Source: Octopus vulgaris
Taxonomy: Eukaryota
DNA length: 64,000 nucleotides
Assembly (NCBI GenBank): GCA_951406725.2
Contig: OX597814.1
Span: forward strand, 68,076,001 to 68,140,000
Direction of reading: 5' to 3'
This document shows, piece by piece, positions 8,587-61,328 of this stretch. The translations under genes and the position numbers were made by a program. The notes below the pieces were generated by a model. The model saw only the letters and a program-made list of their open reading frames with translations, made no database searches and was not told the origin of the DNA. Position 1 is the stretch's first letter. Every line of letters starts with the position of its first letter.

Positions 8587-11418
8587 GGGGACCTCACACC
8601 CCAGGTCCTTTTGTCATACTCAAACTCGGTGTGTGACACACTAATTGTACACATAAGGCAACTTGATGTAGTTGTGTGTGCTACATATCGCCCTCCAGAT
8701 GCCCCAAGTCATATGGGCAAATTTGAGGACTGCCTTTTAAAAATAGAAGAAGTTCTAACCACATTAGAACAACACATAAGTGTACTTCTCATGGGAGACT
8801 TCAATCTACCGAATGTCAGATGGCCCGAGGGCCTTTCTCTCCCAGGAATGACAAGATGTGAACGAGGACAGGCGAGGTCCCTCCTGAACCTCACCAACAC
8901 CCTGTACATGGAGCAAGTAATACTCCAACCAACCAGAGCAGGTAACACACTGGATCTCTGCTTCACAAATAATATGGATCTCATCCATAATGTGAAAGTG
9001 ACACCGACACTACTCTCGGATCACAACATGGTAGAGCTGACCATGTACGGGCCAAAAGAGAGCACGGACATGCAGCCTACAAGAAACCCTCAGAATCTTT
9101 CCAGCTTGAACTTCAATAAGGCAAACTGGAAACAAATTGAGAAAGAGATCCTCAAACAAAACTGGCCTGAATGTCTCTCCTCGCCGGACATCGACATGAT
9201 ACTCCAACAATTCATGTCTGTAATGCAAGCCATATGCTACAAATGTGTCCCAGAGAGAAAGGCCACTGTACACAAGAACAAAATCCCCAGAGAGAGGAAA
9301 ATTTTAATGAGACGGCGTACAAAAATTTCAAATCGCCTAAACAAACAAATTGAAAGCAGTGAAAAGTCCCGCCTGAAAATAAAACTGTTGGAAATTGAAA
9401 ATTGTCTGCAACTCTCCCATGAGAAGGAAAGAGCAGACAAAGAAGCCTGGGCTATAGACAACATAAAAACTAACCCCAGAGCTTTCTACAGGTATGCCAA
9501 AGAAACAGCTACGGTGCACTGTAGGATAGGGCCACTCCTTGAAAAGGATGGCACACTCACAGGAAAACCAATGAGGGTAAGTGAAATACTGAATGAACAA
9601 TTCAAGAGTATTTTCACTCCACCCCTTGGGCATTTCCAAATCAGCAATCCAACTGACTTCTTTACCACTGCAGATATAGAATCAGAGGCGGCGACGATAA
9701 ATTACATCGATATAAAGGAAGACGATGTAATAAAGGCTATAGATGAAATGAAAACAGACTCAGCTATTGGCCCCGATGGATTCCCGGCAATCCTCCTAAA
9801 AGTATGTAAGAGAGTCTTAGCAAGACCACTGCAGTTCCTCTTTCAGAGCTTCCTTGCAGCTGGCAAACTTCCAAGAAAACTGAAGGAAGGTAAAATATGC
9901 CCTATTCATAAAGGAGGTAGCAGAGCGGAGGCCAAGAACTACAGACCTATCTCTCTGACCTCACACATCAGCAAGGTCATGGAACGAATAGTCAGAAGGA
10001 AACTAATCACCTTCCTTGAAGAAAATAACTTGCTGCCTGACACCCAACATGGTTTCCGACCAGGAAGAAGCTGCTTAACTCAGCTCCTGCAGCACTATGA
10101 CTGGGTGCTGAAACAACTGCTCAACCACTCAAATGTGGAAGTCATATATCTCGACTTCGCAAAGGCCTTCGATAAAGTCGATCATGGAATGATATGTCAC
10201 AAACTGCGTGACCTTGGCATAGTTGGAAAACTAGGAGAATGGCTTCACGACTTTCTGAAGAATAGAAGTCAGGTGGTAGTAGCCAATGGGGCCACTTCCA
10301 TTAGCACGCAAATAGTGAGCGGTGTTCCACAGGGCACTGTTTTGGGACCACTACTGTTCATAATGGCCCTCTCAGACATGCCCTCAGCCACGCGGAGAGC
10401 CACGATCACAAGTTATGCAGATGATACAAAAGTTTCACAGGCAATACAGAACCCTGAAGACACTAGGCACCTGCAATATGAGCTGGACGAAATATACAAG
10501 TGGGCTGAAAAGAATAGCATGCAGTTCAATGCTGAAAAGTTTCAAGCTTTATACTATCAGCATGCAAAACTGAATGCAATACCCAAGGAATACACTGGAC
10601 CCGGAGGGATTGCAATCCCAGAGGCACAATCAGTGCGTGACCTGGGTATTCACATGAGTGATGACGCGACCTTTCATGTACATGTTGCTAAACTGACAAT
10701 GAAATGCAGACGGCTGGCTGGATGGATTCTTAGAACCTTTAGAACAAGAGAACAAGAAACCATGATGGTCCTCTGGAAGACACTTGTCCTAAGCCACTTT
10801 GACTATTGCTCTCAGCTATGGTCACCATCCAGTGTCAAGTTGATCACAGAACTTGAGGCGATCCAACGAAGCTACACGAAGAAGATAGCCTCTATGCAGA
10901 ATGTAAGCTACTGGGAAAGACTCAAGAGATTAAAATTATATTCCCTGGAGCGTAGGCGGAAAAGATATGCCATAATATACATCTGGAAGATCCTGGACGG
11001 AAGTGTCCTGAACTTTGGCATCGAGAGTAACGCAAATGCCAGAACTGGGCGCCACTGCGTGGTGCCTAGGACTCCAAACTTGCCATCAAGATGTAGGACA
11101 AGATTCTGTGATAGCCTGGGCTTCCGAGGCCCACAGCTCTTCAATATCCTCCCGAAGAACCTGAGAGACCTGCATGGGGTGGATACAGATGTCTTTAAAA
11201 TGGAGCTGGATCTCTTCCTGTCAGATGTCCCAGATGAACCAACTTCACGGCAGGAGGGGCAGATGAGGGCAGCTGCATCGAACTCTCTCATACACCAAAT
11301 AGCAGTTGCTAGAAAGCCTCCATGAAGTGAAACCAAGTAGCAACACCAAATGGCGGTGCCCCAGCATGGCCACAGCTCATAAGCTGAAACTAGAATCAAT
11401 CAATCAATCAATCAATCA
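8587..11418 (+). mobile_element. 5'-truncated CR1-like LINE with (ATCA)n tail, inserted in (TA)n
   Basis: APE-RT ORF, short 3'UTR with stem-loop, tail atcaatcaatca, (TA)n on both sides. Confidence 0.9.
8611..11325 (+). CDS. CR1-like ORF2 (C-terminal APE endonuclease + reverse transcriptase), 904 aa uninterrupted
   Basis: TYRPP, MGDFN, LDLCF, LSDH; NYRPISLTS, QHGFRPGRSC, YLDFAKAFDKVDH, GVPQGTVLGP, YADD, RDLGI, DYCSQLWSP, YSLERRR. N-terminus missing. Confidence 0.9.
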   Translation: MSYSNSVCDTLIVHIRQLDVVVCATYRPPDAPSHMGKFEDCLLKIEEVLTTLEQHISVLLMGDFNLPNVRWPEGLSLPGMTRCERGQARSLLNLTNTLYMEQVILQPTRAGNTLDLCFTNNMDLIHNVKVTPTLLSDHNMVELTMYGPKESTDMQPTRNPQNLSSLNFNKANWKQIEKEILKQNWPECLSSPDIDMILQQFMSVMQAICYKCVPERKATVHKNKIPRERKILMRRRTKISNRLNKQIESSEKSRLKIKLLEIENCLQLSHEKERADKEAWAIDNIKTNPRAFYRYAKETATVHCRIGPLLEKDGTLTGKPMRVSEILNEQFKSIFTPPLGHFQISNPTDFFTTADIESEAATINYIDIKEDDVIKAIDEMKTDSAIGPDGFPAILLKVCKRVLARPLQFLFQSFLAAGKLPRKLKEGKICPIHKGGSRAEAKNYRPISLTSHISKVMERIVRRKLITFLEENNLLPDTQHGFRPGRSCLTQLLQHYDWVLKQLLNHSNVEVIYLDFAKAFDKVDHGMICHKLRDLGIVGKLGEWLHDFLKNRSQVVVANGATSISTQIVSGVPQGTVLGPLLFIMALSDMPSATRRATITSYADDTKVSQAIQNPEDTRHLQYELDEIYKWAEKNSMQFNAEKFQALYYQHAKLNAIPKEYTGPGGIAIPEAQSVRDLGIHMSDDATFHVHVAKLTMKCRRLAGWILRTFRTREQETMMVLWKTLVLSHFDYCSQLWSPSSVKLITELEAIQRSYTKKIASMQNVSYWERLKRLKLYSLERRRKRYAIIYIWKILDGSVLNFGIESNANARTGRHCVVPRTPNLPSRCRTRFCDSLGFRGPQLFNILPKNLRDLHGVDTDVFKMELDLFLSDVPDEPTSRQEGQMRAAASNSLIHQIAVARKPP

Positions 11419-26855: not shown

Positions 26856-29067
26856 TTATTAGTCAGATTAATATGAGTGACAAATGAGTGAAAGTGGCAA
26901 AATAGTTATGTTAAAAAGTTACCGAGCCCAATTTTGTCCAACATAAAGTACCAGTCAAGAACAGCAGTCGAAATACTGACTGTGTTCTCTCTTCCAAATT
27001 TACGGTCATGTGGTAACGTAAGAAATGAATATTAGTCACATTAATAAAGCGACAGCCGAAACAGAAAGGAAAAAAAAAAGATAGGGGATTATATGACAAA
27101 TGAAAGAAGTCTGCAAGCAATAGAAACTCACACGGATTGTTTACTCTAAGATATGTATTTAAATATAAATTAAAGAAACGAAAATTCGAAGATAAATAAT
27201 ATATTGAATCACCCTCTATCGAGACATTACAAACATTTTACAGTTGATTTGTTCAATAGCTAGACTAGGAAATAAATGTTTCTATGAGGGGACATACATG
27301 TGCGTGAGCATGTATGTCCATGTTTATATAAGAAAATGATAGAAAGAAAAGCTAACTGCACATTAACAAGTAATTAGGATTTCCACCCCAACATTGTGAA
27401 GCTAGAACATTGTAAACTGGAATCAAAAGCATCGAAATGGAGAGAGACACGAACGGAACTGTACTGAATGATTTCATTAACAATAAGTGGAATGCAATTT
27501 TTAGTTATAATATAAATCAGTTTTATTCAGTGCATTGGCACATGATTGTACTTTCTAACTCTAATGAGAACGGCTTAATATTAAAGGAAGGAATGGAAAT
27601 ACATTATGTATGTCCAAATTAAATGGTTCAGAGAAGAACAGTATTCAAAGAAACTGGTCAAAACTTTCATTCTCATACATAGATGAAGTGCTATTCAACT
27701 GACTAACAACGTTAACCAAAACCAAATATCTGACTGGATTATTGAAAATAAGATTAGTTAATAATAAATAAGAAAATTGTTGACAAAGTATGATATGTTT
27801 GTAGCATTCACAGCAATCGTTACAATTACAATACATAAATTCCTGAAAAATTAAACTTCAGAAATGAATCATGGAACGAAGTTAAGGAACAAATAACTAT
27901 TTACAAATAATTATAAGCTGTTAACAAATAATCAATGAATCTACTTCACAATATTACTTGCAAATTTCTGCATGATGTAGAACGCTTTAAAAATGTTATG
28001 GTTCCACGCTTTTTTAGCATATATTCCTTCAATATGCTTGGCATTATTGAAAGTTTGTTCCAACAGATACAACTCCAAGGGAAGAGTCGATTTCTATACA
28101 AATAACATATATCCTGTATCTTTAGCAGATAATGGAGATATAACTTAGATAGATCCTCCTCACTCAGTTTCATTTCGTCTACATTAATTGAAGCTGCGTT
28201 ATAAGCTCTGGCAGAATAGTGAAACTGAGGCAGTTGATGTTTAGCATTCACTACAGCAAGTTGTGTATTGGCAGGTAATATGTTGCAAATATTTCACGAT
28301 AAAAGACAGGGAAAAATCTTTTGTGCCAGGTTTTGGTGTGAAATCTCTCTATATATAAAACTGATCATGTGTGTGTGTCTGTCTGTCTGTCTGTCTGTGT
28401 GTTACCCTAAAACTTGAGAACTGCACAACCAATTTAATTCAAATTTTACACATGCCTTACTTAGGGTCCATGTAGTTTCATGGGCAAAAAAATGTTCAAC
28501 TTCTTGCCTAGAGCGAGCCCATAGCAATATCATATCTTCACTATTTCAGTTTTACGTGTTAAAAGTGAAACAAAAACATTTCTCTATTTTATGTCAGATG
28601 CTTTCACTTTAACAATAAAAATAATAATAACAATTGAATTATATGTAGTAAGTAATAATTAAAATCAAACTAAAGTATAATATAATCGTAACATAACAAA
28701 AGTAAAAATAGCAATTGGTATAAAATTGCATCAATGACTTGAACTCGAATAAGTGGTTTCACATGAATGGGAATAAATTAAAAATAAAATTGGTGTGCAG
28801 AAATGGAATAGTCCAGATGGATAATAAAAAATTAAATTAAAGAAAAGACTATTGTCTATAAAGTATACAATGTAGAGAAAGGTCGCGTTTTTTCGGCTCC
28901 GTGTTTTTTTTTTTTCGGCTCCTGAAAATTCGGTAAAAAAGAACAAAAAGCGTTGTTGTTGTTGTGGAAATTCTGAACGGCGTTGACGCGGTTTCGCGTT
29001 TCGCTCGTTCAGCGCGTTACACTTTTTCTGTTTTGGCGGCCGTTTTCGGTCTGTCAGACAGAAGGAA

Positions 29068-30431
29068 ATGGACAACCCCTACCTGATGGGAGATACGGCT
29101 GCAGTTTTTGAGTCTTTAACAGACTTGTCTACGTCTGAGGAGGAGCTAGAAATAGCAGTGAGGAAAATGGATCAGAAGCTGGGTTATACCTATGCCGGTG
29201 TAACCAAGAAGGCGGAAGAGAAAGGGGTCGACATGGCCAAGTTGCCAAGTTACCAGAAATACATGAAAAAGGAAAGCGGTGAGGTGGAACTATCACCGAC
29301 ACCCAGGAGAAAAGAATGGTATGATAAGAGGACCATTGTTTACAGGGTGTGCGCAAACGAAAGGAAGAGGGTAGAAGTTGTATCCATGGAATGGATAGAG
29401 GAAGCCCTGCGAAGAACTGAGGAGGAAATAAATTTTCTGACTCGAGGATCCAAGTACGGGACCGTAGTTGTGCACTTTAAAAGTGAATCTGCAGCGAGGA
29501 AGATGGCAGCGAAGGCGGTGAAGTCGGAAAAGGTAACACTGTTACCTACGTATTTAAACAGGAGGATTACACGAATAAGGGTGGAGGGAGTGCCACCAAA
29601 CGTGGAGGCAGAATGGATTGTGGCGGCTGTGATCAGCGGCCACGAGGACGAAGTGGATATTCTCCATGCCTCGGTTAAGTCCGAGGGCTGGAGAGGCGTA
29701 ACAGTGGAGCTGAACGTACAGGCAGAGACCGAGGTACTGGTGGACCTGACGGAAAGCATCAGACTGGGAGAAGTGATCATGAGAGTGTGGGTGGAGGGCA
29801 GGGCTCCACGTTGTTACAAGTGTGGCCTGAGGGGTCACATAAGAGCCTTCTGCCCTCCCCCAGGGAAAGAAATGGATCCCGAACCAGAGAGAGAGAAGCA
29901 GAAACCAGAGGAGAAGGAAACAGAGGAAGAGAATACACAGAAATGGAAGGAAGCTGGAAGTAAGAGGAAGAGAAGAATATGTGGAAAAAAAGAAAATAAT
30001 ATGGAACTCCAATCTACCCCAAAACCTCCCACACCCTCTGAGTCCCACCCTATCCATGCAGACATTGAACCCACCCGCTCCCCCCCAACAAGAAAACAAA
30101 AGAAAAAAAGAATGCACACACACAAGAGATTGAAATCGAACCCAGGCCGTACATTTGTACTATGACTGAACAGAAAGAAGTTAAAAGTCTAATGGAAGAG
30201 TATAAATGGTATGATGTTGGAGAGACTAGGTATGCTGTGATTGAAAAGAAGAACATAGGTGAGTTTATGGGGAGGTGTGAAAGGGAGAATTGGGAGGTGA
30301 AAGATATAAGAATGAGCGATGAATTCGTGGAAAATATGGATGAGTGTTTCGGAGTAAGAATGGATATGGAATTTATTCGTATTGACAAAGAACATTCAAG
30401 TGACTATGAAAAACAAAGGACAGGTAAGTGA
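29068..30431 (+). pseudogene. ORF1-like protein, unit 1 (frameshift in C/A homopolymer tract near 30100)
   Basis: 365-aa + 89-aa ORFs join to match the 472-aa unit 2 protein; zinc knuckle CYKCGLRGHIRAFC. Confidence 0.8.
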
Positions 30432-30769
30432 TGCTGACGGACGGGGCCGTTGGTATCGCTTTCATTTTATCATTTTTTTCGTTTAACACTTCATGTTCAT
30501 ATAGTTTAATTATAATGTTCTATGTCCCCATGTTTTGTGATGTCCGGCACTCTTCGTAGCCCCTTAGTGGGTAATAAAGAAATACGTGGTTTTTTCGGCT
30601 CCGTGTTTTTTTTTTCTCGGCTCCTGAAAATTCGGTAAAAAAGAACAAAAAGCGTTGTTGTTGTTGTGGAAATTCTGAACGGCGTTGACGCGGTTTCGCG
30701 TTTCGCTCGTTCAGCGCGTTACACTTTTTCTGTTTTGGCGGCCGTTTTCGGTCTGTCAGACAGAAGGAA

Positions 30770-32188
30770 ATGGACTATGAGTCTCTAACAGACTTGTCCA
30801 CGACGGATGAGGAACTGGAACAGGCAATTGCAGTGAAGCTGATGGAGGAAAAGGCTGGAGTTTTCGAGTCTTTATCAGACTTGCCTACGTCTGAGAAGGA
30901 GCTAGAAATGGCAGCAAGGAAATTGGAAGACAAGCTGAGTTATACCTATGCCGGTGTAACCAAGAAGGCGGAAGAGAAAGGGGTCGACATGGCCAAGTTG
31001 CCAAGTTACCAGAAATACATGAAAAAGGAAAGCGGTGAGGTGGAACTATCACCGACACCCAGGAGAAAAGAATGGTATGATAAGAGGACCATTGTTTACA
31101 GGGTGTGCGCAAACGAAAGGAAGAGGGTAGAAGTTGTATCCATGGAATGGATAGAGGAAGCCCTGCGAAGAACTGAGGAGGAAATAAATTTTCTGACTCG
31201 AGGATCCAAGTACGGTACCGTAGTTGTGCATTTCAAAACTGAGTCTGCAGCGAGGAAGATGGCGGCGAAGCCGGTGAAGTCAGAAAAGGTAACCCTATTA
31301 CCTACGTATTTAAACAGGAAGATTACACGAATAAGGGTGGAGGGAGTGCCACCAAACGTGGAGGCAGAATGGATTGTGGCGGCTGTGATCAGCGGCCACG
31401 AGGACGAAGTGGATATTCTCCATGCCTCGGTTAAGTCCGAGGGCTGGAGAGGCGTAACAGTGGAGCTGAACGTACAGGCAGAGACCGAGGTACTGGTGGA
31501 CCTGACGGAAAGCATCAGACTGGGAGACGTGGTCATGAGAGTGTGGGTGGAGGGCAGGGCTCCACGTTGTTACAAGTGTGGCCTGAGGGGTCACATAAGA
31601 GCCTTCTGCCCTCCCCCAGGGAAAGAAATGGATTCCGAACCAGAGAGAGAGAAGCAGAAACCAGAGGAGAAGGAAACAAAGGAAGAGAATACACAGAAAT
31701 GGAAGGAAGCTGGAAGTAAGAGGAAGAGAAGAATATGTGGAAAAAAAGAAAATAATATGGAACTCCAATCTACCCCAAAATCTCCCACACCCTCTGAGTC
31801 CCACCCTATCCATGCAGACATTGAACCCACCCGCTCCCCCCCAACAAGAAAACAAAAGGAAAAAAAGAATACACACACACAAGAGATTGAAATCGAACCC
31901 AGGCCGTACATTTGTACTATGACTGAACAGAAGGAAGTTAAAAGTCTAATGGAAGAGTATAAATGGTATGATGTTGGAGAGACTAGGTATGCTGTGATTG
32001 AAAAGAAGAACATAGGTGAGTTTATGGGGAGGTGTGAAAGGGAGAATTGGGAGGTGAAAGATATAAGAATGAGCGATGAATTCGTGGAAAATATGGATGA
32101 GTATTTCGGAGTAAGAATGGATATGGAATTTATTCGTATTGACAAAGAACATTCAAGTGACTATGAAAAACAAAGGACAGGTAAGTGA
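30770..32188 (+). CDS. Intact 472-aa ORF1/gag-like nucleic-acid-binding protein (RRM-like region + CCHC zinc knuckle), unit 2
   Basis: FLTRGSKYGTVVVHF, LLPTYLNRK, RVWVEGRAPRCYKCGLRGHIRAFC align with Tx1 ORF1 at 44910 (YVGRGARSATVEAHF, LLPTYMGKR, RVSVEGRRPRCFKCGEKGHVRSNC). Confidence 0.85.
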   Translation: MDYESLTDLSTTDEELEQAIAVKLMEEKAGVFESLSDLPTSEKELEMAARKLEDKLSYTYAGVTKKAEEKGVDMAKLPSYQKYMKKESGEVELSPTPRRKEWYDKRTIVYRVCANERKRVEVVSMEWIEEALRRTEEEINFLTRGSKYGTVVVHFKTESAARKMAAKPVKSEKVTLLPTYLNRKITRIRVEGVPPNVEAEWIVAAVISGHEDEVDILHASVKSEGWRGVTVELNVQAETEVLVDLTESIRLGDVVMRVWVEGRAPRCYKCGLRGHIRAFCPPPGKEMDSEPEREKQKPEEKETKEENTQKWKEAGSKRKRRICGKKENNMELQSTPKSPTPSESHPIHADIEPTRSPPTRKQKEKKNTHTQEIEIEPRPYICTMTEQKEVKSLMEEYKWYDVGETRYAVIEKKNIGEFMGRCERENWEVKDIRMSDEFVENMDEYFGVRMDMEFIRIDKEHSSDYEKQRTGK

Positions 32189-32524
32189 TGCTGACGGACG
32201 GGGCCGTTGGTATCGCTTTCATTTTATCATTTTTTCGTTTAACAATTCATTTTCATAAAGTTTAATTATAATGTTCTATGTCCCCATGTTTTGTTATGTC
32301 CGCCATTCTTCGTAGCCCCTTAGTGGGTAATAAAGAAATACGTGTTTTTTCGGCTCCGTGTTTTTTTTTTCTCGGCTCCTGAAAATTCGGTAAAAAAGAA
32401 CAAAAAGCGTTGTTGTTGTTGTGGAAATTCTGAACGGCGTTGACGCGGTTTCGCGTTTCGCTCGTTCAGCGCGTTACACTTTTTCTGTTTTGGCGGCCGT
32501 TTTCGGTCTGTCAGACAGAAGGAA

Positions 32525-33941
32525 ATGGACTATGAGTCTCTAACAGACTTGTCCACGACGGATGAGGAACTGGAACAGGCAATTGCAGTGAAGCTGATGG
32601 AGGAAAAGGCTGGAGTTTTCGAGTCTTTATCAGACTTGCCTACGTCTGAGAAGGAGCTAGAAATGGCAGCAAGGAAATTGGAAGACAAGCTGAGTTATAC
32701 CTATGCCGGTGTAACCAAGAAGGCGGAAGAGAAAGGGGTCGACATGGCCAAGTTGCCAAGTTACCAGAAATACATGAAAAAGGAAAGCGGTGAGGTGGAA
32801 CTATCACCGACACCCAGGAGAAAAGAATGGTATGATAAGAGGACCATTGTTTACAGGGTGTGCGCAAACGAAAGGAAGAGGGTAGAAGTTGTATCCATGG
32901 AATGGATAGAGGAAGCCCTGCGAAGAACTGAGGAGGAAATAAATTTTCTGACTCGAGGATCCAAGTACGGGACCGTAGTTGTGCACTTTAAAAGTGAATC
33001 TGCAGCGAGGAAGATGGCAGCGAAGGCGGTGAAGTCGGAAAAGGTAACACTGTTACCTACGTATTTAAACAGGAGGATTACACGAATAAGGGTGGAGGGA
33101 GTGCCACCAAACGTGGAGGCAGAATGGATTGTGGCGGCTGTGATCAGCGGCCACGAGGACGAAGTGGATATTCTCCATGCCTCGGTTAAGTCCGAGGGCT
33201 GGAGAGGCGTAACAGTGGAGCTGAACGTACAGGCAGAGACCGAGGTACTGGTGGACCTGACGGAAAGCATCAGACTGGGAGAAGTGATCATGAGAGTGTG
33301 GGTGGAGGGCAGGGCTCCACGTTGTTACAAGTGTGGCCTGAGGGGTCACATAAGAGCCTTCTGCCCTCCCCCAGGGAAAGAAATGGATCCCGAACCAGAG
33401 AGAGAGAAGCAGAAACCAGAGGAGAAGGAAACAGAGGAAGAGAATACACAGAAATGGAAGGAAGCTGGAAGTAAGAGGAAGAGAAGAATATGTGGAAAAA
33501 AAGAAAATAATATGGAACTCCAATCTACCCCAAAACCTCCCACACCCTCTGAGTCCCACCCTATCCATGCAGACATTGAACCCACCCGCTCCCCCCAACA
33601 AGAAAACAAAAGAAAAAAAAGAATACACACACACAAGAGATTGAAATCGAACCCAGGCCGTACATTTGTACTATGACTGAACAGAGGGAAGTTAAAAGTC
33701 TAATGGAAGAGTATAAACGGTATGATGTTGGAGAGACTAGGTATGCTGTGATTGAAAAAAGAACATAGGTGAGTTTATGGGGAGGTGTGAAAGGGAGAAT
33801 TGGGAGGTGAAAGATATAAGAATGAGCGATGAATTCGTGGAAAATATGAATGAGTATTTCGGAGTAAGAATGGATATGGAATTTATTCGTATTGGCAAAG
33901 AACATTCAAGTGACTATGAAAAACAAAGGACAGGTAAGTGA
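32525..33941 (+). pseudogene. ORF1-like protein, unit 3 (frameshifts in homopolymers)
   Basis: 383-aa ORF plus disrupted C-terminal domain. Confidence 0.8.
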
Positions 33942-34256
33942 TGCTGACGGACGGGGCCGTTGGTATCGCTTTCATTTTATCATTTTTTCGTTTAACACTT
34001 CATGTTCATATAGTTTAATTATAATGTTCTATGTCCCCATGTTTTGTTATGTCCGGCCACTCTTCGTAGCCCCTTAGTGGGTAATAAAGAAATACGTGTT
34101 TTTTTCGACTCCTGAAATTCGGTAAAAAAGAACAAAAAGCGTTGTTGTTGTTGTGGAAATTCTGAACGGCGTTGACGCGGTTTCGCGTTTCGCTCGTTCA
34201 GCGCGTTACACTTTTTCTGTTTTGGCGGCCGTTTTCGGTCTGTCAGACAGAAGGAA

Positions 34257-35674
34257 ATGGACTATGAGTCTCTAACAGACTTGTCCACGACGGATGAGGA
34301 ACTGGAACAGGCAAGTGCAGTGAAGCTGATGGAGGAAAAGGCTGGAGTTTTCGAGTCTTTATCAGACTTGCCTACGTCTGAGAAGGAGCTAGAAATGGCA
34401 GCAAGGAAATTGGAAGACAAGCCGAGTTATACCTATGCCGGTGTAACCAAGAAGGCGGAAGAGAAAGGGGTCGACATGGCCAAGTTGCCAAGTTACCAGA
34501 AATACATGAAAAAGGAAAGCGGTGAGGTGGAACTATCACCGACACCCAGGAGAAAAGAATGGTATGATAAGAGGACCATTGTTTACAGGGTGTGCGCAAA
34601 CGAAAGGAAGAGGGTAGAAGTTGTATCCATGGAATGGATAGAGGAAGCCCTGCGAAGAACTGAGGAGGAAATAAATTTTCTGACTCGAGGATCCAAGTAC
34701 GGGACCGTAGTTGTGCACTTTAAAAGTGAATCTGCAGCGAGGAAGATGGCAGCGAAGGCGGTGAAGTCGGAAAAGGTAACACTGTTACCTACGTATTTAA
34801 ACAGGAGGATTACACGAATAAGGGTGGAGGGAGTGCCACCAAACGTGGAGGCAGAATGGATTGTGGCGGCTGTGATCAGCGGCCACGAGGACGAAGTGGA
34901 TATTCTCCATGCCTCGGTTAAGTCCGAGGGCTGGAGAGGCGTAACAGTGGAGCTGAACGTACAGGCAGAGACCGAGGTACTGGTGGACCTGACGGAAAGC
35001 ATCAGACTGGGAGAAGTGATCATGAGAGTGTGGGTGGAGGGCAGGGCTCCACGTTGTTACAAGTGTGGCCTGAGGGGTCACATAAGAGCCATCTGCCCTC
35101 CCCCAGGGAAAGAAATGGATCCCGAACCAGAGAGAGAGAAGCAGAAACCAGAGGAGAAGGAAACAGAGGAAGAGAATACACAGAAATGGAAGGAAGCTGG
35201 AAGTAAGAGGAAGAGAAGAATATGTGGAAAAAAAGAAAATAATATGGAACTCCAATCTACCCCAAAACCTCCCACACCCTCTGAGTCCCACCCTATCCAT
35301 GCAGACATTGAACCCACCCGCTCCCCCCAACAAGAAAACAAAAGAAAAAAAAGAATACACACACACAAGAGATTGAAATCGAACCCAGGCCGTACATTTG
35401 TACTATGACTGAACAGAGGGAAGTTAAAAGTCTAATGGAAGAGTATAAACGGTATGATGTTGGAGAGACTAGGTATGCTGTGATTGAAAAAAAGAACATA
35501 GGTGAGTTTATGGGGAGGTGTGAAAGGGAGAATTGGGAGGTGAAAGATATAAGAATGAGCGATGAATTCGTGGAAAATATGAATGAGTATTTCGGAGTAA
35601 GAATGGATATGGAATTTATTCGTATTGGCAAAGAACATTCAAGTGACTATGAAAAACAAAGGACAGGTAAGTGA
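34257..35674 (+). pseudogene. ORF1-like protein, unit 4 (frameshift in homopolymer tract)
   Basis: 383-aa + 89-aa ORFs. Confidence 0.8.
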
Positions 35675-35990
35675 TGCTGACGGACGGGGCCGTTGGTATC
35701 GCTTTCATTTTATCATTTTTTTCGTTTAACACTTCATGTTCATATAGTTTAATTATAATGTTCTATGTCCCCATGTTTTGTTATGTCCGCCATTCTTCGT
35801 AGCCCCTTAGTGGGTAATAAAGAAATACACGTTTTTTTGCGCTCTGTAAAATTCGGTAAAAAAGAACAAAAAGCGTTGTTGTTGTTGTGGAAATTCTAAA
35901 CGGCGTTGACGCGGTTTCGCGTTTCGCTCGTTCAGCGCGTTACACTTTTTCTGTTTTGGCGGCCGTTTTCGGTCTGTCAGACAGAAGGAG

Positions 35991-37353
35991 ATGGACAACC
36001 CCTACATGATGGGAGATACGGCTGCAGTTTTTGAGTCTTTAACAGACTTGTCTACGTCTGAGGAGGAGCTAGAAATAGCAGTGAGGAAAATGGATCAGAA
36101 GCTGGGTTATACCTATGCCGGTGTAACCAAGAAGGCGGAAGAGAAAGGGGTCGACATGGCCAAGTTGCCAAGTTACCAGAAATACATGAAAAAGGAAAGC
36201 GGTGAGGTGGAACTATCACCGACACCCAGGAGAAAGGAATGGTATGATAAGAGGACCATTATTTACAGGGTGTTCGCAAACGAAAGGAAGAGGGTAGAAG
36301 TTGTAACCATGGAATGGATAGAGGAAGCCCTGCGAAGAACTGAGGAGGAAATAAATTTTCTGACTCGAGGATCCAAGTACGGTACCGTAGTTGTGCATTT
36401 CAAAACTGAGTCTGCAGCGAGGAAGATGGCGGCGAAGGCGGTGAAGTCAGAAAAGGTAACCCTATTACCTACGTATTTAAACAGGAGGATTACACGAATA
36501 AGGGTGGAGGGAGTGCCACCAAACGTGGAGGCAGAATGGATTGTGGCGGCTGTGATCAGCGGCCACGAGGACGAAGTGGATATTCTCCATGCCTCGGTTA
36601 AGTCCGAGGGCTGGAGAGGCGTAACAGTGGAGCTGAACGTACAGGCAGAGACCGAGGTACTGGTGGACCTGACGGAAAGCATCAGACTGGGAGACGTGGT
36701 CATGAGAGTGTGGGTGGAGGGCAGGGCTCCACGTTGTTACAAGTGTGGCCTGAGGGGTCACATAAGAGCCTTCTGCCCTCCCCCAGGGAAAGAAATGGAT
36801 TCCGAACCAGAGAGAGAGAAGCAGAAACCAGAGGAGAAGGAAACAGAGGAAGAGAATACACAGAAATGGAAGGAAGCTGGAAGTAAGAGGAAGAGAAGAA
36901 TATGTGGAAAAAAAGAAAATAATATGGAACTCCAATCTACCCCAAAACCTCCCACACCCTCTGAGTCCCACCCTATCCATGCAGACATTGAACCCACCCG
37001 CTCCCCCCAACAAGAAAACAAAAGAAAAAAAGAATACACACACACAAGAGATTGAAATCGAACCCAGGCCGTACATTTGTACTATGACTGAACAGAAAGA
37101 AGTTAAAAGTCTAATGGAAGAGTATAAATGGTATGATGTTGGAGAGACTAGGTATGCTGTGATTGAAAAGAAGAACATAGGTGAGTTTATGGGGAGGTGT
37201 GAAAGGGAGAATTGGGAGGTGAAAGATATAAGAATGAGCGATGAATTCGTGGAAAATATGGATGAGTATTTCGGAGTAAGAATGGATATGGAATTTATTC
37301 GTATTGACAAAGAACATTCAAGTGACTATGAAAAACAAAGGACAGGTAAGTGA
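35991..37353 (+). pseudogene. ORF1-like protein, unit 5 (frameshift in homopolymer tract)
   Basis: 354-aa + 149-aa overlapping ORFs. Confidence 0.8.
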
Positions 37354-37670
37354 TGCTGACGGACGGGGCCGTTGGTATCGCTTTCATTTTATCATTTTTT
37401 TCGTTTAACAATTCATGTTCATAAAGTTTAATTATAATGTTCTATGTCCCCATGTTTTGTTATGTCCGCCATTCTTCGTAGCCCCTTAGTGGGTAATAAA
37501 GAAATACGCGTTTTTTTGCGCTCTGTAAAATTCGGTTAAAAAAGAAAAAACAACAAAAAGTGAATTGTGGTTGCGGAATTGGAACGTCGGTTGGTGCGGT
37601 TTCGCGTCGCACTGGTTCTGTGCGTCGCACGTTTTCTGTTCGGGAGGCCGTTTTTCGGTCTGAGGCGACT

Positions 37671-39033
37671 ATGAGCCGCCTCTACCAAACGGATGAGATG
37701 GAAGGGAGAAATTTCTCTGAAAATTCGTCGACATCTGAGGAGGAGTTGGCGGTGAAAAAAATGGAAAGCACCTATGCAGGTATAACGAAGAAGTCAACAG
37801 AAAAAGAGATAGACCTGGCTTAGTTGACGGACTTCCAGGAGTTCATGAAGGAGGAGGAGAACGGAGAGGTTGAGCTGTTGCCTCTAGCAGGGCGCGGAGA
37901 CTGGTTCTATCGTAGAACAATTAAATATAAAGTATTTATGAATGGAGGTAGAAAAATGGAAGTGATTAACATGGAAGCAATTGAAGAGGCTTTCAAACGG
38001 ACAGGAGAAGAAATTGTGTACATGACAAAAGGATTAGAATATGGAACCATAACGGTACAATTTAAAAGTGAGAAAGCAGCCAGGAATATAGCAGCCAAGG
38101 TGGTGAGTACAGAAAAGTTTTACTTGTTCCCCTCGTATTTGAATAGAAGGACCACCAGAATTAGGGTGGAAGGAATACCTCCACACCTAGAGGGCGAATT
38201 AATAACGGCTGCGGTTATCAAAGGAAATGAAGATAAAGTGGACATCCTCCACGCCATTATGAAATATGAAGGCGTGAGAGGTGCCACACTAGTAATGAAC
38301 ATACAGACGGAGGCGGAAGTTATAGAAAAGCTTACGGACAGTATAAAAACTGGAAATATTATTATGAGAGTGTGGGTGGAGGGTAGGGCGCCCAGGTGCT
38401 ACAAGTGTGGCATGAGGGGTCACATAAGAGCCTACTGCCCTCCACCACTAAAGGAAAAAGAAAAGGAAATCGTCGCGGAAGCCCCAAAAGAGGAAGAAAC
38501 CAAAGAGAACCAAAGGGAAAAAGAAACGACAGAAGAAGAGGAGATGCAACAAGAGTGGGAAGAAGGAAGAAAAAAGAAAAAGAAGGAAAAAGAAAAACTG
38601 TGCGAAGCCCCAACCCACCCCAACACCACCCGCACCCTCTGAATCCCACCCTTCCCCTGCAGACAGTGAACCCACCCGCTCCCCTCCAACAAGAAAACAA
38701 AAGAAAAATAACAATACAGACAGACAAGAGTTTGAAAACGAACCCAGGCCGAACATTTATATTGTGACTGAACAGAAAGAGGTTGAAAGGGTAATGGAGG
38801 AGTATGAATGGTATGAAATGGATGGGACCAGATATGCAGTGCTGGAAAAGAAGAATATAGATGAGTTTGTGTTGAGGTGTGAAAGGGAGAATTGGGAGGT
38901 GAAAGATACAAGAATGAGCGATGAATTCGTGGAATATATGGAGGACAGTTTCGGAGTAAGAATGGATATGGATGGTCTTCGTATTGGGAATGAACATTCA
39001 GGTGTCAGTGAAAACAAAAGGACAGGTAAGTGA
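37671..39033 (+). pseudogene. Divergent ORF1-like protein, unit 6 (stop at 37821, frameshifts)
   Basis: YMTKGLEYGTITVQF, RVWVEGRAPRCYKCGMRGHIRAYC, C-terminal ..RCERENWEVKD..RTGK conserved. Confidence 0.8.
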
Positions 39034-40554
39034 TGCTGGCGGAGGGGGCCGTTAGCATCGCTTTCATATTATCATTTTTTCATTTTCATTTGCTCATAAA
39101 TTTAATCATATTGTTCTATGTCCCCCATGTTTTGTTATGTCCGCCATTCTTCGTAGCCCCTGGTGGGTAATAAAGAAATAACATGGAGGAAAGCACATTC
39201 AAAAAGTGTCTTGGTGCGACTGTGAAAGATATCTAACCAGAGGCGGTAAATTCGCCACAATAGAAGCAAGGTTCGAGTCAACGGAGCGTGCAAGGGAGTA
39301 CTCGACTCGAAGTTGCAAAGTGGAAATATTTTATTTTTACCTTTATATTTGGGACGTAGGACGTCCCGGATAAAAATTTTAAATGCCCCCCCCCCATAAG
39401 TAGAGGTAGGCTGGATTGTAGATACAATTGATCGAAATTACAAGAGACGGGCTAACAATTCCAGTCTGTTATATATTTTGAGTATTGTTATCACTAGCGA
39501 TATCAAGATATAACTTTGTATTTTGTATTTTATGTGTAGATGTATATATATAGATGTACATGTAACATGTACACATATATATACACATATATATACACAT
39601 ATATACATGCACTAGCACTATGACCCGGCAACGACGGGTCATAATGCTAGTAATAAATAATAGAGAGGTGGATATATCATGTGGGGTGATGAAAATTGTA
39701 AAATTTGTTATTTAAGAGAGCATGATCTATGTGTGTATCAGATGTTGAGGATAAATGAGAAACAGAGTATGTGAACTAGTGGTGGTTGTACGGTAGAAAC
39801 TAACATGGATTGCAGTCCGAAATATTCATTTAAAACTGTATTGTTCTTCTTGTATAGACAGTACTGTAATACAGTGTACATTTCTTCTTTGTGGGCCATA
39901 AAAACCTGTTAATACTAAAATTGTCTTAAACCCTGAATAGAAGTCTTCCTTATAAATTCCATAATTTGTCACTATGAAAAAGGTCAAACTTTGCAAGGCC
40001 GAACTTAGCAATTACCGAAACTTTGGACGTTTCAGTGAAAGAACCTTATGTGTAATTTGACGTCGATTTGAGTAGTAATCATATTTTGATGTCATTGATA
40101 AAGACAGCATTATTATTTCTTTATTGGAGTTGGTTGTTAAAATTTTGTTCATGGACGTGTGTAGATTACTTATAGATGACATTTGTGTTCTAAAATGTGT
40201 CTACATATGAATGTTAATTTGATTTACTTAAGGATGTAAATGATATAATAGAAATCTGTAGTACAACAAAATGAATTATTCTGGGTTGGAGAGATCGTCG
40301 TCTGTCTGGAAAACTTCCAAGATAACAGATGAGAGATATGTACTGCGCATAAGCCAGCAACTTTTTCTGGTTCTTCCTGCAAAGAATATTACAACCGAAT
40401 AAAGAAAATTTAGACCTCAGAACTCTCTGCATTCAATAAAACAGTGACCCACAGCGTGTTTGCAGTGTCAGTACTCATAACAATATTTGGGCTGCTTGAT
40501 TGGACGCTTGATGAGATCCGAGCCAAACACGAAAAATGCTAACACGCACACATA

Positions 40555-44273: not shown

Positions 44274-44697
44274 AGACGTCACTAGAAAAACTCTTATATA
44301 TTTGCAAAGCAGCCTTGTCTTTCATCGCGACCTGGTGGTTAGCGCCCGTTGATAAGGGACAATAATCCCGAAACTAGTCCGAGCGTATCACTCAGGCTTG
44401 CGAGAAAGGGATGGCCTCCCTTTGCAAATACTTCAAGGGCACTAAAATGGTGTCTAAAGCCAGCTGGAGACGACGATCTCCTGGGGCTATAGAGCTACAG
44501 TAACACCCCCTCCCCTATGTGGTTAGCCATATTAAGATGGCTTCTATACTTTACATTATCGAGCGATTACTATTTACATCTCATTCTGAGATTTAATAAT
44601 GCTTACAGTCAGTTTTTCGAAATCAGTGGCAGACGTCACTAGAAAAACTCTTATATATTTGCAAAGCAGCCTTGTCTTTCATCGCGACTTGGTGGTT
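44274..44697 (+). repeat. 357-bp tandem unit with hammerhead (second unit split by Tx1, resumes 49974-50205)
   Basis: agacgtcactagaaaaactc at 44274 and 44631; continuation after the Tx1 insertion. Confidence 0.85.
44343..44385 (+). ncRNA. Minimal type I hammerhead (U3/A8 variant); identical copy at 49993-50035
   Basis: CGCCCG-TTGATAA-GGGA caataa TCCC-GAAA-CTAG-TC-CGAGCG. GUC triplet, ACTAGT palindrome. Confidence 0.75.
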
Positions 44698-44909
44698 TGT
44701 CACTCGTCTAGGGACCCCTCTTTCATCTGCGTATTGAGAAGTTAGCTGCCTATTTTGTCCGTCGTTAATTTGTGTTTGCTCGTGAATTTGAACAGTTGTC
44801 CGTTGTGTGACAGTAATTTTCGCCCTACGGGGCTGAAAATTCTGTGTATAAACATTGTTATTACCTTCGGGGTAATTTTTTTGAAAAATTGGTTCTCATA
44901 ATTTGAGAA

Positions 44910-46319
44910 ATGGAGTACGACTTGGCGTCGAGGAGCGACTTTCCCGTGATGGGAAAAGGCGAACAGAAGGATATCGAGGTTAGAAAACAGTCTTTTTCGG
45001 CCGCAGTGGGCGGAACCGTAACGGAAGTGGAATTCAAAATAGAACAGTTGTTCGAATACCGGAACTTGGTCAAAAAGGAAGGCAACGAAATAAAACTGGT
45101 ACCGCCGCAAGCGATATTACAGGAAATAAAGGCCAAGACAGTCGTGTACAAGGTTTACAGTAACAAAGAGAAAAAAATAATGGACGTGAAGAACGAAATA
45201 GTAGAGAAGTGCTTGTCCCCGGTGCGGAGCAAAATTCGCTACGTCGGTCGAGGTGCTCGCAGCGCTACCGTTGAAGCACATTTCGACTCGGCTGATGTGG
45301 CAAGAGAGATTTCATCAATGACCTTAAAAAATGAGGACATTATATTACTACCTACCTATATGGGCAAAAGAAATGCGAAACTATATGTGGAAGACATACC
45401 AAGAGGATATGATATAATGTGGGTAGCAGCGGTGGTTCTGCACGACGTAGAGCAGAAAGTTTCAATTCTGCAGATGAAAAGGAAAGAGGAGGTAAACTGG
45501 AAGGGACAAGCGCTCGAACTCCTCGTTCAAGCAGAAAATAATGTGCTAGAAAACTTACCCGATAGGGTATTTATTGAGGAGGGAATTTCAATGAGAGTTT
45601 CAGTGGAGGGGCGCAGACCTAGGTGTTTCAAATGTGGTGAAAAGGGTCACGTCCGCTCGAACTGCATAAAAAAAAGTGCTTCAAACACAGAAAAAGAAAA
45701 GGCGGAAAAAGACCCCAAGACTGCGACAAGGAAGGGAATCGAAACGGAAGATAGAAATGAACAAATGAAATTTACACAGGTGACACACAAAAGAAAAAAA
45801 GAAAATACCCTGGACTCTCCTCCCCAAACAAAGAAAAAATCAGCAAACACCGCAGAGATACATACAAAACAAATTCCCCAGCCCTACCCCCACGGCACTG
45901 TATTCATTGGAACACAGTTCGCCAAGCCCCACCCCATAAAACAAGATTGGAAAAAATTGATAAAAAAAAATGAAAAGATTGTAGCATTCGACGAGAGGAA
46001 CGATAGAGTGTTTAAGTATTTTAAATTTTCAAAACTGAAATTATTCAGTAAGTCTGCAGACACTAAGTCAACCACTCGTTTTGCAAAAATAAAGGAAGAC
46101 GAGTGGAAGGAAAAAACACTCCAAGAACATTTTAAAAATAACATTATCAGAGACGTAACTAACGAAATACTGGAGGGCAAACTTACTATAACCCCGGCAA
46201 CCACACCTATCCAGAGCCCGATGGCAACGCCGGTTAAGAGCCCTGCAGCTACGACCACAAGGGAGGAAGAAGGGGAAGCATGCAGATTTAAACTGTCATG
46301 CTCCCTGTCCCAACCGTAA
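44910..46319 (+). CDS. Tx1 ORF1 (RRM-like + CCHC knuckle), 469 aa intact
   Basis: VEGRRPRCFKCGEKGHVRSNC; lies directly upstream of the APE-RT ORF. Confidence 0.85.
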   Translation: MEYDLASRSDFPVMGKGEQKDIEVRKQSFSAAVGGTVTEVEFKIEQLFEYRNLVKKEGNEIKLVPPQAILQEIKAKTVVYKVYSNKEKKIMDVKNEIVEKCLSPVRSKIRYVGRGARSATVEAHFDSADVAREISSMTLKNEDIILLPTYMGKRNAKLYVEDIPRGYDIMWVAAVVLHDVEQKVSILQMKRKEEVNWKGQALELLVQAENNVLENLPDRVFIEEGISMRVSVEGRRPRCFKCGEKGHVRSNCIKKSASNTEKEKAEKDPKTATRKGIETEDRNEQMKFTQVTHKRKKENTLDSPPQTKKKSANTAEIHTKQIPQPYPHGTVFIGTQFAKPHPIKQDWKKLIKKNEKIVAFDERNDRVFKYFKFSKLKLFSKSADTKSTTRFAKIKEDEWKEKTLQEHFKNNIIRDVTNEILEGKLTITPATTPIQSPMATPVKSPAATTTREEEGEACRFKLSCSLSQP

Positions 46320-46346
46320 GTTTTTTTTTTTTTCCTCTCTCCGACA

Positions 46347-49300
46347 ATGGCAAAGCTGGGTTGTGTGAATGTGCGTGGAATGGGGTCGAAATGGAAACAA
46401 ATTTGTCTCCAGAACGACCTCACGACACACGGAGTGGACGTAGCTATTGTAACCGAGTCCAAGATGAACGGGGCCCAAGCGTTCTCGCCTCTTCTAAATG
46501 GTTTCGAGAAATTTATTTCTCCTAGCCGAGGAGGAGTCCTTATCAGGAAGAGCTTGGACTTGCAGGTAAGTACTGTCTTTCTGGACCCAGAAGGCAGGCT
46601 GGTCGTTCTGGATGTGACCCACGTAAGTAAACAGTCCTTCAGGTTGGTAGCTGTCTACGCTCCGAATGAGTGTAGGCAGTCGGGTTTTTTTCGGAATCTG
46701 GAGCTCTTTTTAGTGACGTCGAAAACGGTAGTCTTAGTAGGGGACTTTAACACTGTCCTCGAAGCGCGGGTCGACGGTGTTGGCTCAACCAATAGGAAGG
46801 GGAACACTAGCCTCAAGGGTCTACTAGAGAGCTTTAATCTAGTAGACCGTTATCGACTGGATGAGCCGAACGTTCCACAGTGGCCGTGGAGTAACAACGA
46901 CGGCTCACGCAGATCGTATATAGATAGGATATTCGTTAGGAAAAGAGATAAGGATACGTTTAGTTGTCCACAGTTCCACATTGTGCCTTACACGGATCAC
47001 AAATTTGTGACTTGTAGGGTGCAATTAGATATGTGCCATAGACAGGGACCCGGTACTGGAAAATGAACAAGTCTATTTTGAATTGTGAAGACTTCCGTAC
47101 CCGGATTAAGGTGTTAGTACAGAGGGCATTATGTGGCACCATCATTAACAACAGATGGTGGCACTCCCTCAAAAGAGCCATTCGTTCAGAGTCCATTAGA
47201 TTTAGCAAACAGCTAAGGTTAGATAGGTCTAGGATAGAGGACGATTTAGTTAAGAATCTAAACGAGGCAATGGAATCTGGTTCTGCATCCGGAGTGATGG
47301 CGGCAAGGACGGTATTGTACCGTCACCTTAACTCTAAACACGAAGGTTGCAGAGTTAGAGCTAAGCTACGCGCAGGGAAACGAGAAGGTATTAACGTTGC
47401 CGGATGGGCCCGTCGAGTGGAGAGTCAGAGAGGTAACAAAGCTTCAATCAAGTCTTTAACTGACGAACAGGGACACAAGATCTATGGACAGGAGGAGATG
47501 CAAAAGTTTCTTCACCAGCATTTCGCCCGCTCGTTCGGGAGATGGTGGTTCGCTGGAGCGGGGGAGGGCCTTAAAGGACTTCCTAGCCGGCGGACCGCGG
47601 CTCTCGGGGCGTGAGGTGGAGTGCTGTGAAGGAGCGATCACTCCCGCGGAGATAGAGGGGGTACTGGCCGGATGCGCCGGGGAGAAGTCGCCGGGGGTGG
47701 ATGCTCTGCCCTACGAGTTTTATCAAAGTATGCCGGACTTGTTCGGGGGAATACTGGCAGGCGTCTACGCGAACTGGCAGTAGAACGGGAGAATTCCCAG
47801 TTCTGTAAGCCGGGGAGTGGTGACGCTAATCCAGAAAGACCCGAGCAAGGAGGATAACATTAGTAGTTACAGGCCCATAACTCTACTTAATGTAGAGTTA
47901 AAGATTTTGGCCAAGGTGTTGGCAAAAAGGTTGACGACTGTCGTAGAGAAACTTGTAGGGAAAGCACAGACATGTGCAATTCCAGGCAGGTCGATCCAGG
48001 ACAATCTTCACCTTATACGCTACACCTTAGATAGGGTGGGTAAATTAACCGGCAAGGGCGGGGTAATGGTCCATTTAGACCAAAGTAAAGCGTTCGATAG
48101 GGTAGACCATAAGTACCTGGCGACGGTCCTCGAAGCGGCTGGACTGGGCCCTGAATTTCGCGGGTGGATCTCCGCTATGTATAGCGGCATCAAGTCCACC
48201 GTTCAGATAAACGGTCACCTAACGGAACCGTTTTCGATCGAATGTTCAGTTCGTCAAGGGTGCCCCTTGTCACCACTTTTGTACGTGTTGGCTCTCGAGC
48301 CACTGCTGCAAAAGTTGGAGAGGCTGAGAAGTAACCCGGGTGAGATCGGAGGCGGGAGGACGGTTTCTGCTTATGCGGATGACGTCACCCTCATCGTGTC
48401 CAATGAGGCTCAGCTACCTTGTGTAGAAGATGCTATCAGAGGATAAGAGGCGGTGGCAGGAGCAAAAGTTAACAAGGACAAGTCGATTGGCTTACGCCTC
48501 GGCACCTGGAGGAGCAAGTCGATATCGTCCAGTGCCGTGGGACACTGGACAGATGGTCCTGTTAAGTTGCTAGGAGTTTGGTTTGGGCCAGACTCCCAAA
48601 CGGAGAGGAATTGGAGTGAGGTGACGGACAAGGTGGAGGCCATAGTACGGACCTGGTCTGGAAGGTTTCTGTCCTTGAAAGGAAGGGCGGAGGTGGTACA
48701 GCTGTTCATTGCATCTGTAATCACTTACCGCCTGACCGTTGTCCCTTGCCCCGATTCATGGCATAGCAAGTTGGAGCGAATCCTTTTCCGCTTTTTTGTG
48801 GAAAGGAGGAAAGCCACTTGTGAGGCGCTCCGTTTGCTGCCAGGAACCGTTAAAGGGTGGGTTAGGAATGCCTTGGTTGATGATGTGCAGACATGCGTTG
48901 AGGCTGAAGCATCTCTGGCACCACCTGGAGGGTGATACGGTGTGGAGTCCGCTGGCAGGGGAATTTTTCCCGAGATCGGCTTCCTTAGTGAATTTTAAAC
49001 CCGGTTGCATCAAAAGACGGAATCTGACATTATGGCAAAAGGAGTGCCGACAGGCACTCACGCTGATCCACAAGGCGAGTAAGGCCGGCTGCGGAAATAC
49101 CACCTCGGTATTTTATAGCAGGTTGGTAGAGGCAAAGAACGATGACGTCCTAGGAGGGGCTCTGGGGTTCGACGAAGACCAGCTTACCAACCTGTTTAAA
49201 AAGACTTTCAGGACGGGGTATTTGGATAATTTCCAAAGATCCCTGGCCTGGCAGCGTTATAGGAATGCTTTACCTGTTCGCGAGAAGTTATCGTGGCACG

Positions 49301-49722
49301 GAATTTCAGTGCATCCGACATGTCCAAGATGCGGGTTGGACGATGAAACCGTCCAGCACGCTTTTGTACACTGTCGGCAGTTGTCAGACTTGATAAGTTA
49401 CGCAGAACACGTGTTATCGCATCTTGGACGAGTACAGCTGTCGGCTGAGTCTATGATTAAGATGATATCACCAACTGGACTCTCGAAGGAAGGTGAGGCA
49501 TGTTTTCACTGCACGGTTGCAGTAGTAAAATGATGTATGTGGCGGACAAGAATGGAAGGAGTCGCAATAGGATCCTTTGTCTCAGGCCTCGGCTTGCTCA
49601 CTTACTTCAGATATCATCTGAAGAGCAAAATGGGGCTGGAAAAGAAGACCTTACCACGAGGTGTGTATGAAAAAAGATGGAAGGAAGTGGCGAAAAAGGT
49701 GGGTGTCAGAAACTCAGTTTAA
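46347..49722 (+). pseudogene. Tx1 ORF2 (APE endonuclease-RT-zinc finger), multiple stops/frameshifts
   Basis: GCVNVRG, VAVYAPN, GDFN, SYIDRIFV, TDH; YRPITLLNVELKILAKVL, HLDQSKAFDRVDH, VRQGCPLSP, AYADD; CPRCGLDDETVQHAFVHC. Confidence 0.9.
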
Positions 49723-50201
49723 CTATGGATGGAGAAGAGGAAAGGAAAGCTGCAGGGCCTTATAGGTTGCCGGGGTTTAAAATATATCGGTAAGATTTCA
49801 ATCTAATGTAATGTTATATTAGTCAATGCAAAGGACAATTTAAATACAGTTTTTTGTATAATGAATAATCCATATATTTTGGAAATTTTTAAACGAACCA
49901 CTTAACTGTTTTTTGTATGTATTTTCTGTATTGTTCTTCTATGTACTGATTTTATAATCGTAATAAAGAATTAATCGCGACCTGGTGGTTAGCGCCCGTT
50001 GATAAGGGACAATAATCCCGAAACTAGTCCGAGCGTATCACTCAGGCTTGCGAGAAAGGGATGGCCTCCCTTTGCAAATACTTCAAGGGCACTGAAATGG
50101 TGCCTAAAGCCAGCTGGAGACGACGATCTCCTGGGGCTATAGAGCTACAGCAACACCCCTCCCCTATGTGGTTAGCCATATTAAGATGGCTTCTATACTT
50201 T

Positions 50202-59078: not shown

Positions 59079-59232
59079 ACATACATATATACGACGGGCT
59101 TCTTTCAGTTTCCGTCTACCAAATCCATTCACAAGGGCTTGGTCGGCCCGAGGCTATAGAAGAAGACACTTGTCTAAGGTGCCAAGTAGTGGGACTAAAC
59201 CCGGAACTATGTGGTTGGAAAGCAAGCTACTT

Positions 59233-61293: not shown

Positions 61294-61328
61294 GTAAGCA
61301 AGCTACTTACCACACAGCCACCTCTACG

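Follow-up and report, generated by a model that had tools for sequence, protein, structure and literature searches.

The nearest described case to the octopus arrays reported here is SINEU-3 with Tx1-Mar in Mariner-N4_AMi, where, as with Tx1 in Tx1D, a Tx1-type partner and its non-autonomous passengers target a non-autonomous DNA transposon (Kojima 2015, PMC4494074). Tandem copies of SINEU-3 and Tx1-Mar sandwich a 16-bp duplication and were read as sequential insertions, their 5′ extensions are host-derived, and the position preference varies by family, which was ascribed to different partners (PMC4494074). The present system came to light in a 64,000-nucleotide stretch of the Octopus vulgaris genome (contig OX597814.1, positions 68,076,001 to 68,140,000 of the forward strand; hereafter the window, whose numbering is used throughout), which contains six head-to-tail units of ~1.7 kb each, carrying open reading frame 1 (ORF1) only, from 28884 to ~39180. 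Like SINEU-3/Tx1-Mar, it has a DNA-transposon target and tandem copies around a ~16-bp duplication; it departs from them in having passengers that encode ORF1, a Helitron-like host and, as a second target, the 5′ ends of the passengers themselves. The octopus arrays appear to be a variant of Tx1-type transposon targeting.

Other systems share single features. HAL1, HeT-A and Ag-Sponge are non-autonomous long interspersed elements (LINEs) with ORF1 present (PMC5786205); the octopus units likewise have one ORF1-like protein, no ORF2 and a 3′ tail in common with an autonomous LINE, whereas the stacking of six families at shared sites distinguishes them. HeT-A, TART and TAHRE build head-to-tail telomeric arrays mixing ORF1-only and autonomous families, in which upstream sequence can join the downstream RNA (PMC5537684, PMC13534243). 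Mixed head-to-tail arrays and upstream sequence entering downstream RNA find their parallel here, whereas the octopus arrays are interstitial at dozens of loci on many contigs, have target duplications and are L1-like, not Jockey, so that a HeT-A-type attachment to telomeres without target duplication does not describe them. In R2, cDNA with upstream target sequence anneals to the target and yields precise or tandemly duplicated 5′ junctions, and junction variants can be propagated (PMC3774820). An annealing-type model with single or duplicated 5′ ends would suit both; R2 uses a restriction-like endonuclease and a ribozyme, neither of which was found in the octopus system, where no search aimed at them was made. 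Zepp of Chlorella, autonomous and telomere-associated, is said to insert into earlier Zepp copies. No paper on the octopus system was found in a literature search whose coverage excluded subscription journals, Repbase entries and supplements.

The octopus arrays offer a countable case of a retroelement making its own target, with about fifty young arrays in which both junctions of each unit can be compared. We consider it probable that the units are non-autonomous L1/Tx1-type retroelements borrowing the ORF2 of an autonomous partner, the founder having landed at a fixed site of a host repeat and later copies having inserted, mostly singly, at the 5′ motifs of resident units.

Units, host repeat and autonomous partner

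The genome (2.8 Gb, 227 contigs) was searched with a 32-mer specific to family A, which gave 100 matches, five in the window and 95 across 53 other loci (labelled L with a number); the counts below cover 52 arrays, i.e. the window and 51 loci, L282 and L283 having been annotated and left uncounted. The 16-mer 3′-end probe proposed in the initial annotation proved not to be element-specific, with 24,527 matches and a short interspersed element (SINE) in 30 of 30 sampled. This SINE, with ~24,500 exact matches, ends in the same ~27 bases as the units and is often arranged in 174–184-bp tandem runs (L001–L030; window position 62011).

Every window unit lacks ORF2 and has a single ORF1-like frame that includes a CCHC knuckle; the frame is intact only in unit 2 (472 aa), and in 33 of 132 full-length A units sampled genome-wide. 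The 5′ motif is composed of a prefix (the letters before a T-run), the T-run and a hexamer. As initially annotated, it is doubled in units 1–3 (28884, 30585 and 32341) and single in units 4–6 (beginning at 34095, 35828 and 37507), the first copy measuring 17 bp in unit 2 and 16 bp in unit 3. The wording first given to the motif fits overall, save that ctcggctc precedes ctgaaaa in units 2 and 3 and that unit 4 has cgactc; unit 6 extends to ~39180, past the initially stated end of 37525. Units 5 and 6 share T7-gcgctc-tgtaaaa, their motifs being one change apart, despite belonging to different families (unit 6, family B, is 76% identical to family A in alignment), while one T and one base set the first motif copy of unit 3 apart from the motif of unit 4. 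Within the window, a near-match to the right neighbour like that of a fresh duplication is found only in units 3 and 5, with mismatches in units 1 and 4.

The six units are embedded in a ~1-kb Helitron-like repeat, whose flanks are identical in kind at other arrays and of which empty versions exist. Host sequence was found at 45 of the 52 arrays by script, and at 46 when L147 is added by eye; an exact 24-mer search of the genome gave at least 490 host copies. CTAG followed by T terminates 63 of 70 host 3′ ends, and by eye, without a count, most of 45 host 5′ ends can be seen to start with TC after A. By these sequence marks, i.e. 5′ TC, 3′ hairpin plus CTRR and a position between A and T, the host repeat would be a non-autonomous Helitron. 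When hosts were sampled through their own sequence, leaving out three further listed places already collected, 12 of 63 were filled; the core acatgg of the landing site is intact in 12 of 12 filled versus 29 of 51 empty hosts (p 0.005), and an extra G occurs at the junction in 13 of 33 filled hosts versus none of 24 empty ones. The core is changed in 22 of the 51 empty hosts (L179–L248) and in none of the 12 filled ones, with nine sharing acctgg, possibly a host variant escaping insertion. A decayed ORF1-like gene piece spans the host insertion point (52% over 33 aa, E 2e-5). The target lies inside a decayed fragment from the same retroelement group (window 28843–28880 and 39181–39390), captured and multiplied by the Helitron-like repeat.

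Families A, B, B′, C, D and F and a 5.26-kb partner make up the 52 arrays, and the ORF1 proteins of the six families are 32–59% identical, the B/B′ pair excepted. The partner encodes ORF1 and an intact 1131-aa ORF2 with endonuclease (PF03372), reverse transcriptase (RT; PF00078) and zinc (PF13966) domains, an L1-group architecture of APE endonuclease, RT and C-terminal zinc domain without RNase H. The closest solved relative of its ORF2 is LINE-1 ORF2p (E 7e-65, with R2 at 5e-26), and one 25% homologue is labelled TX1. The partner has a sequence-specific repeat target, with its 3′ end at one base in seven of the first 30 host copies. The unit 2 frame is 34% identical to the partner ORF1 over 235 aa (E 1.5e-44); the 472-aa frame has no Pfam match, and its atlas neighbours are CCHC/RNA-binding clusters at 0.90–0.92, which serve as a lead only. 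Partner and units have their last ~40–60 bases in common: the tails of B′, D and F match the partner at 85–96% over 41–49 bases, and those of A and B share its motif by eye, with no direct blast match to the partner. With an ORF1 frame, a shared tail and target duplications, the units appear to be ORF1-only non-autonomous LINEs of the HAL1 kind, and the shared tail and shared sites suggest that they are mobilised in trans by the partner ORF2.

The genome also contains a second autonomous family, with 79% identity to the partner. Several of its copies (L249–L278) end just 5′ of the starts of other elements, and one further repeat, also the source of the L176 duplication described below, holds the ends of about five.

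Landing sites and junctions of the units

After removal of six unclassified 3′ ends, 230 were tallied, and two junction classes dominate: 113 lie at the 5′ motif of a resident unit and 55 at the host site, with five more at a host position ~10 bases upstream of it. The others fall in host DNA 10–70 bases upstream of the array (16), in the 5′ untranslated region (15) or body (8) of resident units, at a short spacer preceding the motif (9), and in other DNA (9). The families divide between the two classes, with the host site taken by B (20 of 24) and the partner (7 of 9), and the motif by B′ (19 of 26), C (11 of 13) and about half of A (79 of 152). Their usual order in arrays, 5′ to 3′, is C, B′, A, B, D/F, partner, and this order, as well as the last place of B in the window, arises because families differ in target class; B, D, F and the partner would gather on the 3′ side because priming occurs at the host site.

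New copies had been proposed to integrate at the 5′ terminus of a resident with a target duplication of ~16 bp. Neither of two patterns that would have spoken against it, doubled motifs outside arrays and 3′ flanks without enrichment, is seen: a doubled 20-mer has 35 matches in the 2.8 Gb, all inside such arrays, versus none for the reversed control, and of the 98 probe-positive 3′ ends only four are situated in unrelated DNA. The size of the doubled piece is indeed comparable to the duplications at the two other insertions in the window, one of 17 bp with one mismatch (44681–44697 / 49974–49990) and one, at a minus-strand element near 59.2–61.3 kb, of 13 bp exact or 15 bp with one mismatch.

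A further comparison is between the left and right motifs of a unit. Full-length units whose left side is known number 190, of which 112 are motif-flanked on both sides, and in 72 the neighbours exclude unequal crossover (two of these, 5′-shortened, were misparsed and dropped later, leaving 70); expectations were computed among units with the same downstream family, with 5000 shuffles. Left and right prefixes agree in 50 of 72 units against 20.7 expected, and prefix, T-run and hexamer all match in 23 against 5.7, neither value being reached in any shuffle. For host-adjacent units the prefix matches in 21 of 26 (8.5 expected) and the full motif in 12 (1.7 expected). The local neighbour is a better predictor of the prefix than the nearest relative, 28 to 7, and rare variants stand on both flanks of single units at L111, L134, L137, L141, L144 and L152. 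The prefix agreement supports sequential insertion with a ~16-bp duplication, so that this part of the proposal stands; the first landing site is the host repeat, not the element itself. Related autonomous copies in other DNA have exact 16–18-bp duplications in six of 10 examined, in line with the doubled piece of 16–17 bp, a truncated partner copy (L212) has one of 15–16 bp, and an A pair at L176 is flanked by an exact 18-bp duplication. An apparent 18-bp duplication around L129 was rejected as two different SINE copies joined.

Several results weigh against this reading. The prefix fails to match in 22 of the 72 units and the whole motif in 49, the hexamer that follows the T-run is the same on both sides in only 46 (38.7 expected), and A units immediately 5′ of B match fully in only 3 of 17. 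Where the neighbour is of the gcgctc type, doubled units share its hexamer type in one of 13 cases, versus 10 of 14 for single-motif units. Founders at the host site lose ~9–12 host bases and show no duplication. In unit 3 of L166 and the second unit of L280–281, the 3′ end is joined to a foreign leader with no left duplication, as a template jump would give. Among A units, 34 of 76 that precede a motif are doubled, versus one of 22 that precede the host site, a contrast confounded by 14 host-site units being one lineage. Sampling through one A-type probe also leaves arrays made only of D, F or partner under-sampled.

The hexamer disagreement suggests that in many cases the doubled end is an old duplication that travelled in the RNA and annealed via the T-run, the doubled motif thus often being inherited with only its front part local. 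The L176 duplication recurs as a leader in arrays L109 and L166, and that of L163 in L129, both having moved from one contig to another. The arrays would thereby illustrate how a duplicated target can become a 5′ end that is passed on.

Mechanism and growth of the arrays

In the mechanism that we propose, target-primed reverse transcription would be carried out in trans by the 5.26-kb partner or a relative, and a predicted staggered cut of 16–18 bases would duplicate the resident's 5′ motif. The cDNA end would then anneal to the overhang, leaving a single motif when in register and a doubled one when out of register; a doubled end, once transcribed, would be inherited, only the first ~10 bases deriving from the new site. 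The loss of 9–12 host bases at founder junctions would best be accounted for if a short, purine-rich leader had annealed further upstream. Long host-derived leaders were rejected, as the last 150 host bases hold no variants shared within junction groups; any leader would measure ~10–15 bases.

That the arrays are mainly single-event concatemers, made by an RT that reaches the 5′ end of an RNA and jumps to the 3′ end of another, so that the junction motif is merely an RNA 5′ end, seems unlikely to us. The foreign-leader joins at L166 and L280–281, the weak match of A before B, the lack of an outer duplication at the host and the absence of an age gradient would all suit it; it predicts independent left and right motifs, against the agreement found in both the 72 and the 26 host-adjacent units, and it leaves aside the 3′ ends located upstream in host DNA, in resident 5′ untranslated regions and in bodies. 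It is disfavoured as the main route, and template jumps probably account for a minority of junctions. The near-identical runs within L109, L135 and L166 and the 0.2% distance between window units 3 and 4 recall unequal crossover, and the host sequence at 45 of 52 arrays with its stereotyped left junction recalls one old insertion spread by Helitron transposition; a combination of the two as the origin of the arrays is very improbable. Host flanks are 5.2–5.8% apart at array loci and 4.7–4.9% at empty hosts, filled hosts being no nearer to each other than to empty ones, while units are 0.3–1.1% from a copy at another locus. As host flanks are several-fold more diverged than units, the units entered hosts that were already dispersed and are younger than them. 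The closest relative lies within the same array for only 30 of 139 units, and not for the other 109; of 133 adjacent pairs only three moved as a pair, and the arrays show variable junctions and interleaved families. Helitron spread is refuted as the main route, and local duplication is a minor contributor.

Strict polar growth, with each new copy at the 5′-most position and age falling from 3′ to 5′, is quite unlikely, although the initial annotation had arrays growing with polarity. The usual family order favours it, as do private changes rising from C (0.47 per kb) through A (0.67) to B (1.93, a count inflated by the smaller sample), a weak all-family age trend confounded by sample size (rho 0.14, p 0.06), and an A younger than the adjacent B in 10 of 14 cases. 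Within A, the 5′-most unit is older in 20 arrays and the 3′-most in 15 by nearest relative, a comparison of low power, and by private changes, with a median of 0 per A unit, the split is 14 versus 11 arrays and 25 versus 23 adjacent pairs. These are weak tests, most units being too young for them, and the family order follows target class instead. Because a motif target needs a prior founder, motif-class units sit 5′ of the founder, with no age trend among them. The equation of most divergent with oldest is likewise not supported: unit 6 is the most divergent and the 3′-most unit of the window as a matter of family, yet 0.4% from its nearest copy at another locus. Among private changes A-to-G is the commonest (61 versus 21 for T-to-C), as RNA editing would give, with 5–16 in each of four units (L099, L119, L144 and L161 arrays).

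Returning to sequential insertion at host site and motif, landing sites appear bound to lineages. Sister A lineages ~2% apart, none encoding ORF2, hold different targets: 28 of 29 units of one cluster abut a resident 5′ motif, with the host site unused, and 14 of 18 units of another lie at the host site, with the motif unused. In 81 of 132 cases a unit and its nearest relative at another locus belong to one target class, against 48 expected and at most 70 in any of 5000 shuffles; where the 6-base tails agree, the four letters that follow are those of the nearest relative in 35 of 72 (23.2 expected). We tentatively raise the possibility, with more doubt than confidence, that the choice of landing site lies with the RNA and not only with the endonuclease. 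A unit's final few bases, or a short read-through into the donor flank, would pair with the nicked strand; a copy once landed on a 5′ end would breed copies doing likewise, and old duplications would become heritable leaders. Alternatively, each lineage is served by a different autonomous partner, which would make the arrays a richer version of the crocodilian Tx1-Mar/SINEU case. The second autonomous family was rejected as a dedicated motif-targeting partner, with only one of its 10 closest copies ending at a motif. If targeting does run through the RNA 3′ bases, the template could steer an L1-type enzyme, which would bear on the origin of target specificity and on tools for site-specific gene insertion.

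Feature coordinates and other elements of the window

Table 1. Features of the array and its host in window coordinates
Feature	Position	Strand	Remarks
Left host arm	28344..28883	+	Non-autonomous Helitron-like, starts with TC after A; same flank at other arrays
End of left host arm, last ~40 bases			Decayed ORF1-like frame, resuming past the array
TATA-like word	28856..28863	+	Putative, from sequence; 27 bases 5′ of unit 1
Unit 1 doubled 5′ motif	28884..28921	+	16 + 22 bp
Unit 1	28884..30584	+	Family A, short type; ORF 29068-30165, 365 aa, frameshifted
Unit 2	30585..32340	+	Family A, doubled motif; intact 472-aa ORF1-like frame 30770-32188, CCHC knuckle
Unit 3	32341..34094	+	Family A, doubled motif; 0.2% from unit 4
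Unit 4	34095..35827	+	Family A, single motif
Unit 5	35828..37506	+	Family A, short type; B-type single motif
Unit 6	37507..39180	+	Family B; putative founder, 3′ end at host site
Right host arm	39181..39650	+	Landing site acatggagg, decayed ORF1-like piece, hairpin 39620-39642
3′ terminus of right host arm	39647-39650	+	CTAG, then T

The AATAAA of each unit lies 7 bases 5′ of the GT/T-rich motif of the next, an arrangement resembling a polyadenylation signal with its downstream element, yet a poly(A) tail is missing from most copies. In the L104 array, the second A unit includes, in inverted orientation, a 945-bp piece of its 3′ half.

Elsewhere in the window, 44698–49973 is a decayed full-length L1/Tx1-type element, 68% identical to the partner, which lies inside another repeat and is flanked by the 17-bp duplication. 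The minus-strand element (59230–61300) is an ORF1-only element within a SINE; its 3′ tail differs, and its 5′ region resembles the units' motif (T6-gggctc-cgtg). Further upstream, 8713–11325 and 5239–8367 hold an apparent RT-like frame of 870 aa and a decayed element, its end putatively GIY-YIG-like, between long inverted repeats.

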